Source of the DNA: a virus
Lineage: Duplodnaviria; Caudoviricetes
IMG/VR virus record: IMGVR_UViG_2772190778_000001
Strand: one strand, 5' to 3'
Length of the DNA stretch: 64,000 bases
Shown: piece by piece, positions 2,368 to 54,356 of the stretch
Position numbering within the stretch: position 1 is the stretch's first letter
Layout: every line of letters starts with the position of its first letter
Program-made: the position numbers and the translations under genes
Notes under the pieces: generated by a model
Told to the model about the DNA's origin: nothing
What the model saw: the letters and a program-made list of their open reading frames with translations, nothing else
The model's database searches: none

Positions 2368-2976
2368 GGCGGTCTCTCCTTTTTGGGGTTCGGCGAATGG
2401 GATTTGTGTGGTCTCGGGCGCGCCTGTGGCGTCGCGGAGTGCCTCTTGGCCTGCGGGGGTGCGTGCCCAGGACAGGACGGCGGCAATCGCGCCTTTCAGC
2501 GTGTCCGCGAAACTGGCGGCGGGCGCTCCCTCTTCCGAGAAGGCGATCTCCAAGGTCACAGCCTCGGCGTCCTCGGCGAACTCGGCCGCCTTGAGGCCCT
2601 TCACGGCGGGGGGCTGCGCGCCCAGAAAGCCCACGTGCTTCAGGTAATAGGTGCCGGGGGTCGGGTTTGCGGCAGACTGGGGAGGATAGAAGGAGGCGCT
2701 GATCCGCTTGAAGCGGCCCGCGCGCACCATCTCGGCGAAGGCAGGCTCCACCTGGTCGGGCTCGGCAAAAAGCTCCGCCCCTTCGGCGCGCAAGCGTTTG
2801 ACCCAGCCGTAAGCCGGGGCATCGGTGCGAGGATGGCCCACGACAATGGGGGCCTCATGGAGGGCGGGATTATAGGCGGTGGCAATGCCCTCGACCTCGG
2901 CTTCGGAAAACTCGAAGCTCTGCCCGGAATGGGCGGTGTGGCGACCAGCGCGGAAGATGTGAAGCGGTTTTGTCAT
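1891..2976 (-). CDS. Mu gpI-like prohead protease/scaffold
   Basis: LHIFRAGRH, APIVVGHP, AYGWV, FKRISASFY, YLKHVGFLGAQPPAVKGL motifs. Confidence 0.92.
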   Translation of the reverse strand: MTKPLHIFRAGRHTAHSGQSFEFSEAEVEGIATAYNPALHEAPIVVGHPRTDAPAYGWVKRLRAEGAELFAEPDQVEPAFAEMVRAGRFKRISASFYPPQSAANPTPGTYYLKHVGFLGAQPPAVKGLKAAEFAEDAEAVTLEIAFSEEGAPAASFADTLKGAIAAVLSWARTPAGQEALRDATGAPETTQIPFAEPQKGETAMSGKDTQTPEDRQAALDARAAALEAKEAAFAEALSKTRRAEDAALVEALVKDGRIAPGLKDEMAAFMESLDAQDEVAFAEGKSASPRAWFRDLLSKQTKPLIDFSERAGGDALPQVKGPDDITAAAKRLIKDAEAEGRTLSFAEAARQIEETMESDNG

Positions 2977-3179
2977 GACCCGACATTAAGCCGGGGCGAC
3001 GGGCCAGATCAGATGAAGGGCTTCAGGGGAAGGGGGGCGCGCTGCGCGTGCCACCTTGGGTCAGACTAGCGCCCTCTAAGGGCATGCGGCAAGCCCGGAA
3101 TGCAAACGGCCCCAGAACGGCCCGCTGAGTGCGCTTCTGGCTCTGGCGGGGGTTGGGTCGCAAAATCCCCGATGGGGGT

Positions 3180-23519: not shown

Positions 23520-23737
23520 GCGATTTTGGAAATGACCGAGTCGAGCGTCACTTTGGACATTAGCTCTAGCCTGGCCCTTTGATTTCGTCACGGTTTGTTC
23601 GGGATTCAGAGGTCACGGTCAAAAGACAATTGTCGCCATTGATCTTGCGCTAAAGTGAAGCCCCCGCCCAAATCCCACTATTGCGTCAACGAACTGCTCT
23701 TCTTAGGCTACCGGTGATAGCAGCAGGTGATACCCGA

Positions 23738-25114
23738 ATGGATTATTACACAATTGGCGTGCTGGTTTGGTTTTTATCAGCACCGCTTTTTTTCATCCTC
23801 TTCCTTATTTTCAGATCGAAGCTCCGGTCGACACGTAAGCAGATGATTGACCTTGAGGCGTCGACCCAGCGCGTTCGGGAACAGGCCGACGCAAATGTGA
23901 AGGCGTCTGACGAAAAATACAGCTGGATAACCTCGCGAGAAAAAGAAATTGAACGCTTAGAGGCCAGTGCATCGCAACTGCGCAAAGACATTGATGAGTT
24001 GCGCACCTCATACAAGGATAAGAAGTCGACTTTTGATCGGCTACGGCAAGAGGTCGCCTTATACGACGAACGGATAGCTTTCGCGGAACTTGGCGTCTAT
24101 GAGCCCCATTTCGACTTCGGAGATTCTGAGGTTTTCAGGACCGCAATCAACGAAGTCCGTGAAAAGCAGAAGGCCATGGTATCAGCCAAAATGGCGACGG
24201 CCTGTCCGACTGATTGGACCGTGGACGGTAGCAAGTCCAAGGGAGCCGCGATGATCAATCGTCAGACTCGATTGACCCTGCGCGCGTTCAACAGTGAATG
24301 CGACGCCGCAATAGCGAACGCTCGCTGGAACAACGTAAACGCCATGGAGAAGCGTATCTTGAACGCGGAGAAGCAAATCAACGCGGCCAATGCCTCTATG
24401 AACCTGACCATTCGCGGGGAGTATGTTGCTTTGAAGCTTGATGAGCTGCATCTGACCCACGAGTACCGCGAACAGCAGAAGCGCGAGAGGGACGAGCGGG
24501 CAGAAAGTGCGCGGCTGGACCGAGAGGAGAAAAAGCTCCAAGCTGAAGCCGCCGCCGCAGCCGCCGAAGAGAAAAAGTACCAAGAGATGCTTGATAAGGC
24601 ACGGCAGGAAGTAGGCGTTGATGAGGAAAGAATCGTAGAACTAGAGCGCGCATTGGCTGAGGCCCACGAGAAGACAGAACGGGCAAAATCCATGGCGGAA
24701 ATGACGAAGTCTGGGTATGTCTACATCATCTCGAACGTCGGTAGCTTTGGTGAAGACGTTGTCAAAATCGGATTGACCAGAAGGCTCGATCCAGACGACC
24801 GGGTGCGTGAGCTTGGAGATGCAAGCGTACCGTTTCTGTTTGACACTCATGCCATGATTTATTCTGAAGAAGCTCCGGCTCTCGAGGCCGCTTTGCATCG
24901 GGAATTTGAAGAAAGACGTGTAAACGCCGCAAACATGCGCAAAGAGTTCTTCCGGGTTTCTCTCGAGGAGGTCGAAGAGGCGGTGAAGCGCCTTGCCACG
25001 GGCGCAGAGTTTTTCAAGGATCGCGAGGCACAGGAGTGGCACGAGACCTTGTGGCGCAGGAAGCAGCTATTGTCTGCCCAAGGAACCGCCGAGGCGTTGC
25101 CTGATAATATCTAA
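23738..25114 (+). CDS. DUF4041 protein with N-terminal TM, coiled coil and C-terminal T5orf172/GIY-YIG-like domain
   Basis: LRAFNSECD, GYVYIISNVGSFGEDVVKIGLTRRLDP.DRV.ELGDASVPF.FD.HA. Confidence 0.88.
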   Translation: MDYYTIGVLVWFLSAPLFFILFLIFRSKLRSTRKQMIDLEASTQRVREQADANVKASDEKYSWITSREKEIERLEASASQLRKDIDELRTSYKDKKSTFDRLRQEVALYDERIAFAELGVYEPHFDFGDSEVFRTAINEVREKQKAMVSAKMATACPTDWTVDGSKSKGAAMINRQTRLTLRAFNSECDAAIANARWNNVNAMEKRILNAEKQINAANASMNLTIRGEYVALKLDELHLTHEYREQQKRERDERAESARLDREEKKLQAEAAAAAAEEKKYQEMLDKARQEVGVDEERIVELERALAEAHEKTERAKSMAEMTKSGYVYIISNVGSFGEDVVKIGLTRRLDPDDRVRELGDASVPFLFDTHAMIYSEEAPALEAALHREFEERRVNAANMRKEFFRVSLEEVEEAVKRLATGAEFFKDREAQEWHETLWRRKQLLSAQGTAEALPDNI

Positions 25115-25213: not shown

Positions 25214-25345
25214 TTCAACGCCCCTTTAACACCCCGCTAAACACCTCCCTCACTCCACATACCGAAACCCCTGCACGGCGCGGGAATGTCCCATATGCGC
25301 AGGAGGCGGGCTTTGCAAAGGTGGGATCTTGGCACCGAAGCCGAC
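25214..25345 (-). pseudogene. Relic 3' end of an ABC-GNAT allele plus its downstream motif
   Basis: AAGCCCGCC...TATGG...CATT(C/T)CCGCGCCGTGCAGGGGTTTCGGTATGTGGAGTGAGG matches the end of 26741-27850 with a 2-nt frameshift. Confidence 0.75.
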
Positions 25346-25475: not shown

Positions 25476-26369
25476 TTAAAAGCGGAAGTCACGTCCCTTT
25501 TTCTTTGCCTTCTGACGAAGATCGGATACTCTTTTGCGGCTCTCTTCTGTTAATTCATTGTCAACTTCTGTGAGAGCGGCATTGATCGTTTTCTTCTCGA
25601 TCAGTAACTCTTTTAGTAAATTGTTTAATGCGATATCGATTTCGTGAAAGCACGCGAAGACCGACTGATAGCATTCCGAAGCTGGATCTGAATAGTATTG
25701 ATATTCAACTCCATCAACTTCAATGCTCTCCACCGTTATCTCGGGTTTATCGAGCTTTTCGAGCTCAACGCTCTCCTTCCAGGTTGCATTGTCGTAAAGA
25801 GCAGACGTAGTGCCAGGAAAAAATGTGTAAGGATTGAATTTTGCGGCATCTTCCAGCTCGAACATCAAGGCTTCGAGCTTCAGTGGAAGATTAGTGGTAC
25901 TTCTGAGTTTCATGATCTCGTAGTGGAAGTTCTTCCTAGTCAGAATATTCTCTATGAATTGCCTCTCAAAACCAAAGGGCGATGGATAGTATTCAACAAA
26001 TCTAGGTATATAGTCACCATGATCGCCTGCCCACTTTTCTTGGAAAAACGGAACTCTTGAATAAAGCTCATCTTTAATTTGGAGGACTGGAATCAACGCA
26101 TTTTCCAAATCGCTTCTCATTAAAACCAAACTCTCTCTAGTCGCGGCCAAAGACTGGCGTCGGGTCTCAATGACCTGCCGAGCAGCGTACCAAATTGCAA
26201 TCACGGTAAATATGGCTGCAAGGGGATTTATCCAACTTCGCAGGCAGATAACTGGGCTCTCGTCGGCAACACAGAAATAGCTATGGAGAGAAGACGCGTA
26301 AAGCCAGGCCGCAAACAAAAGTACTACGCTGCCCAACGAAACAGCGCATAGGATGAAAAGTTGTTTCAT
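25476..26369 (-). CDS. AT-rich membrane-anchored hypothetical cargo protein
   Basis: Two N-terminal hydrophobic segments, acidic soluble domain; start MKQLFIL. Confidence 0.75.
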   Translation of the reverse strand: MKQLFILCAVSLGSVVLLFAAWLYASSLHSYFCVADESPVICLRSWINPLAAIFTVIAIWYAARQVIETRRQSLAATRESLVLMRSDLENALIPVLQIKDELYSRVPFFQEKWAGDHGDYIPRFVEYYPSPFGFERQFIENILTRKNFHYEIMKLRSTTNLPLKLEALMFELEDAAKFNPYTFFPGTTSALYDNATWKESVELEKLDKPEITVESIEVDGVEYQYYSDPASECYQSVFACFHEIDIALNNLLKELLIEKKTINAALTEVDNELTEESRKRVSDLRQKAKKKGRDFRF

Positions 26370-26632
26370 ACGTTTAGAGTCCCTTTTGCCTTCCACCAAC
26401 CGTTGGCCAGAGTTGCCGATGGATACTGAGACGTCAATTGCTTGGTGTGCATTCCTCTGCAGGATCGCCTCGGGCAGCCAATGCTGCCATCAACTAACTC
26501 CCCGAAGTGTCCTAGGGCTTTCAATGGATGCCGTTCACCATTGCCGGGTAGCAATTTACGAGCGGTCATTGTTCTTAACAAGATCAGCGACCTCATCGTC
26601 CGCATCCTACCAGTTCGTGGCCCCCGCGGTGA

Positions 26633-26687
26633 ATGTCAGCTATCGCAAATTCGCGTCTGGGACCGTGGGTCCGCTTCGGGCTGACAT
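26633..26687. repeat. Imperfect palindrome flanking cassette
   Basis: ATGTCAGC/GCTGACAT outer arms, GGACC/GGTCC inner arms. Confidence 0.5.
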
Positions 26688-26740
26688 CGGTCATTAACTA
26701 GGAACATGAGGGGCAGGTTTAACCCCCCTTAAACACCCCC

Positions 26741-27850
26741 TCACTCCACATACCGAAACCCCTGCACGGCGCGGAAATGGCCGCCATAGCCAGTCCCGGC
26801 GGGCTTCAGGCCGCGACGCGCCCGGGCAGCGGCGAGGGTCTTCATGCTGCGTTCCTTGGACTGGGCGTAGAGGATGGCGGAGACCTGCGCCCAGAGGGGA
26901 TCGCGGCGGAGCGCTGCGGCGAGGCCGGGGTGCGAGGTGTGAAAGAGCATCGGCATCGGTTTGTCGTAGCGGTTCACGCCGCGCCGCCAGAGGGCGCAGA
27001 CCTCGTTGAGAAAGCGCAGGCCCAGCCCCGCGCCTTGCCACTCGGGCATGACGACAAGGCGACAGGCGCGGCCCTCGACCAGCCCCGGCCGGGTCGAGAC
27101 GGCGAGATGCGCCACGGGCGCGCCATCGACGAAACCCACGTAGTAATTGGCCGCGATCATGCGGGGCAGCTTCAGGTAGTGATGCGGCTCAAAGGCGGGC
27201 CAGAAGGAGCCGTCCGTCTGGTGAATGTCCATGGCAATGCGCGGTGCCCGTCGAAGACGCCTCCAGCGGAACTCGGCGCGGCGGGTGTCGATCACCCAAT
27301 CGGGCTGTAGCCATGACACCACGTCCTCGTGACAGGTGACGGCGACGAACTGGCCTTTGCCGCGCCGCCACGCCTTGGCAAACGCGGCGGCCCCGATCTG
27401 GGCCACGCGCCGGTCGATGGTCGAGGTGAACTCGTCGAGAATGGCAAAGCTCGGCCGCTCTGCCAGAATGCGCGCCAACTCAGCCCGGAATTGCTCGCCG
27501 GTCGAGAGATGGTGGAAGGGGCGCAGCCAGCTCGGCACGGTGCCAAGGCCCACGGCGGAGAGGGCCGCCGCGACGGCATCGAATGCGCCCTCGGGATCAA
27601 TCGCGTCGATCAGCGCGCCCTCGGGCCACGGACGTGGATCAAGCTGCGCGCCAAAGGCCGCGCGGGCAAGCGAGGATTTGCCGCTGCCCGAGGGGCCGAC
27701 AATGAGGCCGATCTGCCACGGCCGGGCCAAGAGATCGGCCTCGACCTCGAGGCGGAAATCCGCGTCGCCCTCGACGTTGAAGAGGCTGGAGACCCGGGCC
27801 GCGCGGTAGGTGTCCGGGATGGGGCTAGGGTGGTGGATGGCGAGCTTCAT
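26741..27850 (-). CDS. ABC-type ATPase fused to GNAT acetyltransferase (mom position)
   Basis: GPSGSGKS, LSTGEQFR, ILDEFTS, VTCHED; HHYL and RLVVMPEWQGAGLG. Confidence 0.88.
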   Translation of the reverse strand: MKLAIHHPSPIPDTYRAARVSSLFNVEGDADFRLEVEADLLARPWQIGLIVGPSGSGKSSLARAAFGAQLDPRPWPEGALIDAIDPEGAFDAVAAALSAVGLGTVPSWLRPFHHLSTGEQFRAELARILAERPSFAILDEFTSTIDRRVAQIGAAAFAKAWRRGKGQFVAVTCHEDVVSWLQPDWVIDTRRAEFRWRRLRRAPRIAMDIHQTDGSFWPAFEPHHYLKLPRMIAANYYVGFVDGAPVAHLAVSTRPGLVEGRACRLVVMPEWQGAGLGLRFLNEVCALWRRGVNRYDKPMPMLFHTSHPGLAAALRRDPLWAQVSAILYAQSKERSMKTLAAARARRGLKPAGTGYGGHFRAVQGFRYVE

Positions 27851-28029
27851 GTCACCACCACGCGGCATTTGAAGCCCTGACGGCGCAGGCGGCCAAAGGC
27901 ATCCACTTGGGCGGCCTCGTCCTCGAGCAGGACAATGACGCCATATTGCCGCCGGTAGCGGGTGCCCTTGGGCAGGCCCGGCGCACCGGGCGGCAGCTCA
28001 GGTTTCGGGAGGGTGGACGATCTTGCCAA
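27847..28029 (-). CDS. Small protein coupled to ABC-GNAT
   Basis: AAGGAG RBS plus TTG; YGVIVLLEDEAAQ...GFKCRVV; ATGA overlap. Confidence 0.7.
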   Translation of the reverse strand: MARSSTLPKPELPPGAPGLPKGTRYRRQYGVIVLLEDEAAQVDAFGRLRRQGFKCRVVVT

Positions 28030-28201
28030 GTTTGGCTCCTTCTCTTAGCGCATCGCGCTTTGGGGGAAGGGCTCTTGGCCTCGGTGTGTTCATGGCCCGG
28101 CATCTTGGGCACTTGATCGAGATGCCGGATATCCGCGCGCCTCTCGAAAACTTGAATAACAAACGGCCACATGCGCAGCAACGGGCATCTCGATCTTCCA
28201 C
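27998..28201 (-). CDS. com: Com-like zinc-finger translational regulator
   Basis: RC.ACGRLL...IKCPRC..N; GAGGTG RBS plus GTG; overlaps the next gene as in Mu com-mom. Confidence 0.85.
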   Translation of the reverse strand: MEDRDARCCACGRLLFKFSRGARISGISIKCPRCRAMNTPRPRALPPKRDALREGAKLGKIVHPPET

Positions 28202-28776
28202 TTAGAATCACCTCATAAGATCACCGCCCCCTTGGGGCAGGGAGCGGCCATGAGGTCTGTCTGGTCGGCGGGGTTTCTGTTTGGTGACGTGGCCCCGTGC
28301 CCTAGGGCGCGTTCCAGAAGCGCGCGCCCTAGGGTCTCTCTCTAGCGCCACAGTGGGGCCAGCGGCCGGTGTGGTTCGCCAGTTTCGCGCGGGGCAATCG
28401 GCCATTCCAGATGAAGGATTTCCGAGGGTCCCACGGCCCCTTGTGCTGTTTGAGCCCTTTGGCGCTGCCAATCTCTGAGCGGGCCGCCGGAGACACACGT
28501 ATCTCGCCACGATGTGAACGGGAGTGAGGCCTTATGCGGCCCCGCGGACCTCGACCCTGACCACAGAATCGCCCATTGGTGCCGCGGCTCTCCTCCGAGC
28601 TTGGGGCGATGATTTGTTGTGTTGGTCGGCGGGGCCCTGCGTTTTGCATCCCCGTGCCTCGGGACGTGCCCTCCCTGCGTCCCGAGGCCCCCATGGAGGC
28701 AGGCCTATAAGGGTCACCAATGGTCTGCGGCATAATCCGCCTGCATCGGGTCCATGGCCAGCAGCGCAGTCAGGAC
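28202..28776 (-). ncRNA. Candidate structured RNA/leader with two copies of a conserved module
   Basis: TGGTCGGCGGGG...CCCCGTGCC followed by a perfect 11-12 bp hairpin at 28262-28334 and 28623-28688; no convincing ORF. Confidence 0.45.
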
Positions 28777-29220
28777 TTAGCTGTCGAACTCTGCTATTTC
28801 AGCCTCGAACTGCCCGAGCGCATCGTCAGTATCCGTTACAGATTGCGACAGGCTAATGGCCTGGATCGTTTCGATCCGCGCCTTTTCCAATTGAGCGCCA
28901 ATGTCTCTCCACTGGGCCGCCAGATTCAGAAACACTTGGGCCACTTCGTATGCGCTGCTGCCTGTAGATCCGACTTCTCCGGCAATAAATGGATAGTCTT
29001 GTTCCCAGCCTGCCACCGTGTTTGGTTCGGGTGTTGCTGCGACGTACGCCAAGGCCTCGGCTTCCTTGGCCATGTAGATCATGGATTGACCCGCAATCGA
29101 CGTGATGAACCTCGACCTGATCTGATCCATTCTCTTGTTGACGGCATCCTTGGCTTTAGCCTTGCAAACGTTCAGTTCGCGCGCTTTGCTCACATCGGAG
29201 CGGGACAATATGCGTGTCAT
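28777..29220 (-). CDS. Tail fibre-associated/assembly protein (DUF4376-like)
   Basis: IR.RFIT...GQ.MIY.AK..EA, YPF...EVG, LE..R motifs; follows tail tip genes. Confidence 0.7.
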   Translation of the reverse strand: MTRILSRSDVSKARELNVCKAKAKDAVNKRMDQIRSRFITSIAGQSMIYMAKEAEALAYVAATPEPNTVAGWEQDYPFIAGEVGSTGSSAYEVAQVFLNLAAQWRDIGAQLEKARIETIQAISLSQSVTDTDDALGQFEAEIAEFDS

Positions 29221-53826: not shown

Positions 53827-54356
53827 GCTGCACCACCTTTCGCCGGGCTGAAGCCGCCGGTGTTGGGGTCAAGGATGCCCGCCAGACGCACCGGCTTGGG
53901 CGCGCGCGGGCCGGTATCCTCGACAAGGCGATAGAGCGCTTCGCGGCGACCGGGGATGGCCATTTCGACCACGCGCAGATGTTCGGAGGCCAAGAGTTGG
54001 CGGCAATAGGCGCGTGCCTTCTCGACGGTCACTTCGACGCCTCCTGCATTGGCATGGGCTGCGATGTCGACGGGGCTGAAACTATGGCGCAGCGTGCGCA
54101 TAGCGCGCCACATATTTCCCTCGGGTGTTGCCTCGCCAGAGACCGGCTGCGGGCCGGGCAGGGGGCGGCCTGTGGGGGCATACCAGCGTTTGCCATTGCG
54201 GGTGACGCGGCTCACGCGGATCTTGCCCGCGTCCCGCCAGTGGCGCAGGTAGCGCACGGCAGTCTCACGGCTGCAGCCGAGGTGGGACACGGCCTCCCAG
54301 TCAAACTCTTCAAGCTCGCGGACCTGCGTCCAAAGGCGATCAAAGAGGTCACTCAT
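53823..54356 (-). CDS. Putative DNA-binding early protein
   Basis: Homolog of 15430-15960. Confidence 0.75.
   Translation of the reverse strand: MSDLFDRLWTQVRELEEFDWEAVSHLGCSRETAVRYLRHWRDAGKIRVSRVTRNGKRWYAPTGRPLPGPQPVSGEATPEGNMWRAMRTLRHSFSPVDIAAHANAGGVEVTVEKARAYCRQLLASEHLRVVEMAIPGRREALYRLVEDTGPRAPKPVRLAGILDPNTGGFSPAKGGAA

Follow-up and report, generated by a model that had tools for sequence, protein, structure and literature searches.

In the com-mom operon of phage Mu, the logic of translational control is well established: a hairpin and the fold that inhibits translation are mutually exclusive. TmcA and NAT10 represent a second point of reference, in which a GNAT domain coupled to an ATPase acetylates N4 of cytidine in RNA. 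Mom itself uses glycyl-tRNA, the glycyl group being transferred to N6 of adenine in a tRNA-dependent manner (PMC13219725). For phage GNATs that are coupled to an ABC ATPase, Iyer, Zhang, Burroughs and Aravind (NAR 2013) predicted acylation of a DNA base, a prediction that its authors restated in 2021 (PMC7824862), and phage ParB-like proteins without the usual DNA-binding domain are experimentally required by some DNA thymine dioxygenases (bioRxiv 10.1101/2025.08.14.668559). Here, a cassette of com, a gene for a 60-amino-acid (aa) adaptor and an ABC-ATPase/GNAT fusion gene was analyzed in a stretch of 64,000 nucleotides (the window) from a virus of the Caudoviricetes, IMG/VR record IMGVR_UViG_2772190778_000001. 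The minus strand from 28201 to 26741 carries the three as overlapping open reading frames (ORFs), which are read here, with moderate confidence, as a late-expressed DNA-modification cassette encoding a Com-gated, ATP-dependent acyl-CoA:DNA-base acyltransferase (CoA, coenzyme A). The protein-coding features are as follows, motif positions in the fusion being given in the numbering of its 369-aa form.

27998..28201, minus strand: com, encoding a 67-aa Com-type zinc ribbon (C-x2-C ... C-x2-C)
27847..28029, minus strand: adaptor gene, 60 aa; phrog_28816 (unknown function), E 2e-9
26741..27850, minus strand: ABC-ATPase/GNAT fusion gene, 369 aa; phrog_11143, E 4e-131
27251..27850, minus strand: ABC nucleotide-binding domain, residues 1-200; PF00005, E 7e-10
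27674-27697, minus strand: Walker A, GPSGSGKS, residues 52-59
27491-27508, minus strand: signature, LSTGEQ, residues 115-120
27431-27448, minus strand: Walker B with catalytic Glu, FAILDE, residues 135-140
27326-27334, minus strand: H-loop of the ABC domain, H174
26744..27238, minus strand: GNAT domain, residues 205-369
27020-27061, minus strand: GNAT strand 4 and motif A, R-x-V-V-x-P-x-x-Q-G-x-G-x-G, with Q-G-A-G-L-G at residues 272-277

A sequence-only reading of this DNA had placed Com, a 60-aa protein and an ABC ATPase-GNAT fusion at 26741-28201, and each of the three ORFs was confirmed there. The com gene begins at a GTG codon just preceded by GAGGTG, and its last 32 nt are shared with the adaptor gene, which starts there at a TTG located 6 nt after an AAGGAG. 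The com product scored 27.5 bits against Pfam Zn_ribbon_Com PF10122 (cut-off 22.9, E 2e-6), matched the 'translational regulator' family phrog_6417 at E 6e-10, and aligned by BLASTP with Mu Com (E 1e-6), the four Cys being in register. Both traits of the Com family are thus displayed at this locus, namely a four-Cys zinc ribbon above the PF10122 gathering score and a gene that overlaps the start of the gene it would regulate, with a structured RNA, the predicted target, at the junction. Regarding the fusion, the ORF is present as originally listed (26741-27868, 375 aa), and only its start requires correction: homologues can be aligned only from approximately residue 7 onward, and at 27850 there is an ATG that overlaps the adaptor stop as ATGA, so that the likely product is the 369-aa protein of 26741-27850 and not the 375-aa one that begins at the upstream in-frame ATG, 27868. 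The match to phrog_11143 (E 3.9e-131) covers residues 9-374 of the 375-aa ORF and profile positions 3-349 of 357, and a full-length match of this quality excludes a chance ORF pattern. Walker A, signature, Walker B, H-loop and acetyl-CoA motif, reported as complete by the sequence-only reading, are all intact, and the ABC and GNAT motifs are invariant or nearly so among 57 diverse homologues down to 30% identity. In this alignment R264, V266, P269, Q272, G273 and G275 are invariant. Among Pfam models ABC_tran gave the strongest match, with GNAT models scoring below threshold. The features that define the phrog_11143 module were found in the window: an N-terminal ABC domain with its motifs, a C-terminal GNAT with motif A, a full-length profile match, and an adaptor encoded directly upstream with an ATGA overlap. 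The frequent, not universal, formyltransferase gene directly downstream is missing.

The first line of evidence concerns the 60-aa protein. With the protein itself as query, no more than 7 near relatives came back, since annotation seldom includes small ORFs, and the family was instead recovered from the DNA upstream of ABC-GNAT homologues. A hidden Markov model (HMM) was built from seven small ORFs in this position and searched against six-frame ORFs of 80 genome loci; the window adaptor matches it at E 1.6e-27. The domain lies upstream of ABC-GNAT on the same strand in 78 of the 80 loci, the remaining two being incomplete. In 65 loci the adaptor stop and the ABC-GNAT ATG overlap by exactly 4 bases, and in 10 more they lie within a few codons of each other. 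The extra small subunit postulated earlier is therefore real and universal, and its conservation indicates that the 60-aa protein is an obligatory adaptor or partner. Its C-terminal core is formed by a strand-helix-strand of 36-40 residues (Y-x-x-Q-Y-G-V-I-V ... D-E-x-x-Q ... G-F-K-C-R-V-V), for which the family consensus is aromatic-basic-Tyr...Gln-Phe/Tyr-Gly-Val-Ile-Val, then Asp-Glu-x-x-Gln, then Gly-aromatic-x-x-Lys/Arg-Val-Val. In Porphyromonas phage phage011a_WW2952 the homologue at 2876-3004 is labelled 'acr candidate', as in several Porphyromonas phage records; the label is probably wrong, since the pairing of adaptor and enzyme is conserved.

In other phages the same domain occurs as the tail of ParB-like proteins. 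Twenty of the adaptors in the 80 loci are long proteins, 13 of which match ParB_N (PF02195). The C-terminal tail of Gordonia phage Axumite gp1, annotated 'ParB-like nuclease domain protein', is the adaptor domain (E 4e-14), and in Streptococcus phage Javan141 a ParB_N protein (Javan141_25; PF02195, E 4e-11) with an adaptor tail precedes split ABC and GNAT genes. Furthermore, the order ParB_N, adaptor, ABC-GNAT is found in a single chain in the metagenomic proteins P0155, P0157, P0165, P0173, P0202, P0278-80, P0296 and P0299. These fusions are evidence, at the level of domain architecture, for contact between adaptor and enzyme. When folded, the natural fusion P0157 gave a pLDDT score (predicted local distance difference test) of 91 and a predicted template modelling score (pTM) of 0.74, and a fold search with the model matched only ABC and GNAT. 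A search with the ParB_N-adaptor part of P0157 returned the same fusions together with approximately 37 proteins that join a 40-56% identical ParB_N to a DNA methylase or to DUF4417, the identity being 50-56% for N-domains fused to DNA methylases PF01555 and PF02086. None of these approximately 37 fusions carries the adaptor domain. Since the adaptor is present in the ParB_N–ABC-GNAT chains and absent from the ParB_N-methylase and ParB_N-DUF4417 ones, it can be regarded as the specific connector between ParB_N and ABC-GNAT. The joining of ParB_N to methylases, together with the ParB requirement of the thymine dioxygenases, is contextual and constitutes the strongest available argument for a DNA substrate.

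The second line of evidence concerns the junction between com and the adaptor gene, where a conserved RNA element was located.

28022..28091, minus strand: Com-associated RNA element, within the com 3' end; covariance model R1, 27.6 bits, E 3e-5
28080-28070, minus strand: hairpin A, GGC / CAAGA / GCC
28058-28048, minus strand: hairpin B, GCGC / GAU / GCGC

The AAGGAG site and the adaptor TTG start (28029) come straight after the two hairpins. In the predicted minimum-energy fold, 28079-28074 (the 5' arm and loop of hairpin A) pairs with the start-codon region 28030-25, and the ribosome site 28042-28035 has 28072-28066 (the 3' arm and the bases that follow) as its partner. Formation of hairpin A would therefore preclude the inhibitory fold and vice versa, because the arms of the hairpin are occupied in that fold by the start region and the AAGGAG. 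Com precedes the adaptor in 37 of the 80 loci, mostly in Mu-like prophages of Proteobacteria, and in all Com loci the region between the second Cys pair of Com and the adaptor start contains two short hairpins with similar loops of the C-N-N-G-A type, followed by the ribosome site. The covariance model R1, built from 24 loci, was searched against 84 sources. Exactly one match per locus was obtained in 37 of them, always at the com/adaptor junction, and none in any locus without Com. Matches outside the model-building set include phiE255 (56.7 bits) and Pseudomonas phage Komp_PAO1_1; Pseudomonas phage Bise (OR683401.1; 51.3 bits, E 8e-13) was matched as well. In Bise, an unannotated Com-like ORF with the two-hairpin element (2501-2657) lies directly upstream of a DNA adenine methylase. 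A gene of the reverse-transcriptase family sits just before this ORF.

Pairing in the R1 alignment reaches 89.9% of cells, against 75.5% after shuffling (0 of 500 shuffles reached the observed value). Double-sided changes occur at all eight pairs, in 42 cells against 9.9 expected, and when the 3' partner is slid by one to three columns pairing falls to 14-58%. These statistics lean in favour of the element, because the structure guided the fitting of the alignment, which also lies across coding sequence. Nevertheless, the stem of hairpin A exists as GGGC/GCCC, GCGC/GCGC, GGGU/ACCC, GGAU/GUCC and AGGC/GCCU, a variety that, from the alignment, appears hard to explain by protein constraint. When both hairpins are forced, the ribosome site and start in the window reach a predicted accessibility of 0.46 instead of 0.31; for the 37 loci together the value rises from 0.43 to 0.51 (Wilcoxon p 0.002). 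An earlier run of RNAalifold on a MAFFT alignment of six relatives, since superseded by the covariance model, recovered hairpin B alone; hairpin A was missed because differing loop lengths shift the register. An Rfam scan of 26500-28900 at E<=1 yielded no matching family, with a single meaningless microRNA match. Control by Com, as proposed from the sequence alone, is thus plausible and is backed by a conserved RNA element at the com/adaptor junction.

From these observations, the following course of events is proposed. Without Com, by analogy with Mu com-mom, the mRNA fold would bury the ribosome site and the TTG start of the adaptor. Com would bind or stabilize the hairpins that compete with this inhibitory fold, allowing the adaptor to be translated late in infection, and translation of ABC-GNAT would follow that of the adaptor through ATGA coupling. 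The adaptor, a presumed free-standing form of the tail that tethers ParB_N proteins to the enzyme in other phages, would then dock onto ABC-GNAT. Two ABC domains may dimerize, closing around ATP by means of their intact Walker A, Walker B, signature and H-loop motifs, to engage DNA or to present a base, upon which the GNAT would transfer an acyl group to the exocyclic amine of a DNA base. Acetyl from acyl-CoA is the most likely group, because the CoA-pyrophosphate motif is invariant. Such a mark would be put on phage DNA before packaging and would shield it from host nucleases. The comparative context, comprising the adaptor-ParB_N fusions, the ParB_N-methylase fusions and the methylase cargo of Bise, points to DNA as the probable target; the DNA substrate, the acyl group and the anti-restriction role are what we infer. 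A bolder form of the proposal can be advanced only tentatively, with less than even confidence: that the enzyme is the first ATP-dependent DNA N-acyltransferase, that it leaves an acetyl-type mark (e.g. N4-acetylcytosine or N6-acetyladenine), and that in Mu-like phages it is switched on by the Com-responsive two-hairpin element, a gate that could be carried from one class of DNA-modifying cargo to others. To our knowledge, an acetyl-type mark on the exocyclic amine of a DNA base has not been described for phage DNA.

Several observations weigh against a Com-gated acyltransferase of DNA. Part of the conservation of the RNA element is protein-driven, since it overlaps the com coding sequence. 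The gain in predicted accessibility from forcing the hairpins (0.43 to 0.51) is modest. In a crude comparison, the pairing probability of the ribosome site was 0.563 in loci with Com versus 0.560 in those without (p 0.29), and since no difference exists, this simple test gives no support for an inhibitory fold specific to Com. Moreover, the minimal form in the window carries, as far as can be recognized, neither ParB_N nor another DNA-binding domain, and the predicted ATPase domain resembles the transporter or ABCE1 type, not the DNA-clamping type of Rad50, SMC or MutS. The nearest structures to the modelled GNAT are protein N-terminal acetyltransferases (RimI, Naa10/50), a similarity that is generic but does not favour DNA, and at the profile level the GNAT appears unrelated to Mom. 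Finally, a literature search for experiments on the family found no paper with an experimental test or substrate evidence, and no solved structure of any ABC-GNAT family member was found.

The structural model bears on the first alternative, acetylation of a protein. The AlphaFold2 model of the fusion has a pLDDT of 90.7. Residues 1-200 are predicted to fold as an ABC nucleotide-binding domain, which matches domains of the transporter and ABCE1 types at Z 13-13.6, and residues 205-369 as a classical GNAT, with Z 15.1 to 1y9k at a root-mean-square deviation of 2.4 over 128 residues. The best GNAT neighbours are otherwise the protein N-terminal acetyltransferases, RimI (5isv) at Z 14.8 and Naa50, Naa10 and Ard1 at Z 13-13.5. 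A protein substrate might be, for instance, a virion protein or a host factor of defence or transcription, with the ABC domain as an ATP-gated switch and the adaptor as the specificity subunit; the absence of a DNA-binding domain from the minimal cassette would suit it. Phage GNATs that acetylate host RNA polymerase are known, the example being Rac of phiKMV-like phages, cited in a passage of PMC7824862. We consider this alternative unlikely. The GNAT likeness is generic, dozens of unrelated GNATs lying within one Z unit, and the adaptor occurs repeatedly in fusion with ParB_N domains of a kind joined in other proteins to DNA methylases. The same Com and RNA gate stands elsewhere before a Dam-type methylase, and conservation at 50-60% identity between phages of Proteobacteria, Bacteroidota and Actinomycetota argues for a universal and not a host-specific substrate.

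The relation to Mom and the nature of the donor bear on the next alternative, in which the target is RNA or charged tRNA. It had been suggested that the cassette stands 'in place of mom'. This holds for its position, as the last unit at the right end, and for control by Com, but not for homology or descent: the family profile from the 57-homologue alignment gave a probability of 0.2% against Mu Mom in hhalign, no Mom family appeared among Pfam matches at E<=0.1, and homology of the window GNAT to Mom was therefore rejected. The Q-x-x-G-x-G motif A has an established role in binding the pyrophosphate of CoA. At the corresponding position Mom has no Q/R-x-x-G-x-G/A motif, which in the ABC-GNAT family is invariant. 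Given this contrast with the tRNA-dependent Mom, an acyl-CoA donor is, on motif evidence, more likely than a donor of the Mom type.

The formyltransferase that usually accompanies the family must also be considered here. A Formyl_trans_N protein of 160-215 aa is encoded after the ABC-GNAT gene in 61 of the 80 loci, usually overlapping it. None was found in the window by tblastn with three family members or by HMM, the best chance match (E 0.007) lying elsewhere, and owing to this absence the window represents the minimal two-protein form. A 70%-identical Phaeobacter relative is without the gene and a 77%-identical Rhodobacter relative has one, so that it has been gained and lost among close relatives. 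On this distribution the formyltransferase is best regarded as an accessory and not a defining feature. The family protein keeps the His of H-P-S-L-L-P and the downstream Asp, with Gly or Tyr at the position where PurN, Fmt and ArnA have the catalytic Asn. Its matches, weak and far below cut-off, do not tell the Fmt, PurN and ArnA types apart.

Several modes of action on RNA can be envisaged: acetylation of a tRNA base in the manner of TmcA, acetylation or formylation of the amine of aminoacyl-tRNA, or use of aminoacyl-tRNA as a donor like Mom. TmcA joins an ATPase and a GNAT to acetylate tRNA cytidine, ABC-F and ABCE1 act on ribosomes, and ABCE1 is among the structural matches. The weak best matches of the usual third gene include Met-tRNA formyltransferase (E 1e-7 to 9e-14), and Mom has been shown to use glycyl-tRNA (PMC13219725). 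Against this, the formyltransferase matches the PurN and ArnA types equally weakly and is absent from the window, the CoA-binding motif A is invariant, neither a tRNA-binding domain nor a tRNA gene is present, and the ParB_N, methylase and terminase contexts point to DNA. An RNA or tRNA target is accordingly judged quite unlikely. A reading without any dedicated function, in which the fusion is a common ABC-transporter ATPase or a dead prophage remnant wrongly joined to an acetyltransferase, is very improbable and effectively refuted by the pattern of conservation: although public annotations name homologues 'ABC transporter ATP-binding protein' and the strongest Pfam match is ABC_tran, the cassette has no gene for a membrane protein or permease, all NCBIfam transporter matches reach 25-38 bits against cut-offs of 130-900, so that the fusion does not qualify as a transporter component, the architecture, motifs and adaptor are conserved over hundreds of 50%-identity clusters and many phyla, and two intact copies (99-100%) exist in the genome. 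The probability left over by the Com-gated DNA acyltransferase and these alternatives belongs to something not yet imagined. A weak PADLOC match of mad3 to the ABC domain (E 6.5e-15, residues 116-194) was read as common ABC motifs, and membership of a defence system on this ground was rejected.

The family to which the fusion belongs is extensive. More than 5700 homologues were found at E<=1e-10, and 505 clusters (50% identity) match the fusion at E<=1e-30. Identity of the fusion is 61% with Burkholderia phage phiE255 gp29, 58% with a Pseudomonas phage protein, 50% with those of Porphyromonas phages and 48% with those of Gordonia phages, and it ranges over 50-97% across the 80 loci, which are at species level and span Proteobacteria, Planctomycetota, Verrucomicrobiota, Chloroflexota, Bacteroidota, Bacillota, Acidobacteriota and others. 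As judged from these alignments, identity across hosts is unusually high. Com, adaptor and ABC-GNAT, with or without the formyltransferase, recur in this layout at the termini of Mu-like prophages and of phages in alpha-, beta- and gamma-proteobacteria. The earlier statement that ABC-GNAT fusions had been predicted computationally as phage modification enzymes is borne out by a passage of PMC7824862. In the metagenomic homologue P0241 (715 aa), the N-terminal ATPase part is interrupted by an intein that contains Hint and LAGLIDADG homing-endonuclease domains.

The setting of the cassette is that of a Mu-like transposable (siphophage) prophage, of which it is the last unit at the right end, where Mu has com-mom. 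Other features in this setting are as follows.

28202..28297, minus strand: leader, common to the cassette in related prophages, with a mosaic boundary at 28297
57289-58143, minus strand: ParB-like protein, 284 aa, at the prophage left end; phrog_3264, E 7e-56
55169-57292, minus strand: MuA-like transposase; phrog_310, E 3e-161
54353-55150, minus strand: MuB-like protein
23681-25114, plus strand: 477-aa protein with DUF4041 and T5orf172; full-length match to the PADLOC PD-Lambda-1 model, E 1e-163

The Mu com-mom position assigned by the sequence-only reading agrees well with the Mu-like gene order on the minus strand, which also includes terminase, portal, Mu-F-like protein, protease, capsid, tape measure and a 1312-aa J-like tail protein, with the module last; a repressor gene and operators lie near 58.8-59.5 kb. 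The adaptor domain is absent from the ParB-like protein of 57289-58143, which is therefore no obvious candidate for the ParB partner that the cassette lacks. A search for tRNA genes gave none, and a comparison of the two prophage ends for inverted terminal repeats gave only short matches at chance level. By Megablast, most of 19 IMG/VR loci match the window only from 28297 down to approximately 26681-26741, so that the part in common with relatives includes the leader, which therefore moves together with the module. Two strong hairpins (fold z -3.0) were predicted 5' of com, at 28218-28330 on the minus strand, and the 3' arm of the second, a long one (approximately 28262-28218), covers the GAGGTG ribosome site of com itself.

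A second copy of the cassette, 99% identical, is located 42.3 kb away in a neighbouring prophage of the same genome, both copies being intact. There is also a relic of a third copy approximately 4.3 kb past the window end (G000:C1:3693449-3693517), consisting of the last 23 codons of ABC-GNAT at 74% identity; the relic and the full copies 42.3 kb apart suggest a row of Mu-like prophage ends. Around the end of the ABC-GNAT gene, a direct repeat of 67 nt (91% identical; 25225-25291 and 26718-26782) comprises the last 42 nt of the gene and approximately 23 nt downstream. The repeats flank a 1.4-kb cassette of low guanine-plus-cytosine (GC) content with one 307-aa ORF (25476-26399, minus strand), for which no match was obtained in Pfam, PHROG or PADLOC. 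A duplicated 3' end of a similar kind occurs in the IMG/VR contigs L010 and L011, and the gene end looks like a recurrent site of insertion or recombination. The 477-aa protein of 23681-25114, whose PADLOC match PD-Lambda-1 is an anti-phage system, sits a short way past the cassette in a low-GC stretch (48-55%) that adjoins the prophage end.

With thousands of homologues in approximately 500 clusters, ABC-GNAT is among the most widespread phage enzyme sets without a tested function. Should DNA acylation prove true, natural DNA marks would gain a new chemical class and phages a further way of evading restriction, and the enzyme might serve as a new tool. The Com-linked RNA element would extend the translational switch of Mu com-mom to a broad set of phages and cargos. 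The window offers a compact experimental starting point, with three genes, no formyltransferase, no ParB domain and two intact genomic copies.

Comparison with the known systems places the cassette as follows. The likeness to TmcA and NAT10 is one of logic, an NTPase module joined to an acetyl-CoA GNAT for acylation of the exocyclic amine of a nucleobase, and is an analogy only: they have a helicase-type ATPase and a tRNA-binding domain, whereas the window enzyme has an ATPase of the ABC type and no tRNA-binding domain, and no TmcA-type family appeared among its Pfam and NCBIfam matches, so that it does not belong with TmcA/NAT10. With the ParB-dependent thymine dioxygenases (bioRxiv 10.1101/2025.08.14.668559) it shares a ParB-like partner of a DNA-modifying enzyme, the ABC-GNAT adaptor being the tail of a ParB_N protein in at least 13 of the 80 loci; the enzyme class is different, and the window keeps only the tail, as a 60-aa protein with no ParB_N attached. 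Mu com-mom is likewise the final operon of a transposable phage, at its right end, with a homologous Com zinc ribbon whose gene overlaps the start of the next, a GNAT-fold enzyme, and a predicted RNA fold that masks the ribosome site and that Com could open. The window differs in having an ABC ATPase and an adaptor and in that Com would gate the adaptor gene directly, not the enzyme gene; R1 gave no match in Mu. The Com-methylase end of Bise shares the Com family and the two-hairpin element directly before the cargo gene, the cargo there being a Dam-type methylase and here the adaptor with ABC-GNAT. The system predicted by Iyer et al. in 2013 and phrog_11143 agree with the window in protein family, domain fusion, phage context and predicted role, from which the window copy differs in being minimal, without ParB_N and formyltransferase, and placed under Com. 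The cassette is thus an ordinary member of a large phage family already predicted in print, and what it adds is an adaptor that is a detached ParB tail, a covarying Com-linked RNA element held in common with a methylase cargo, and the minimal two-protein form.

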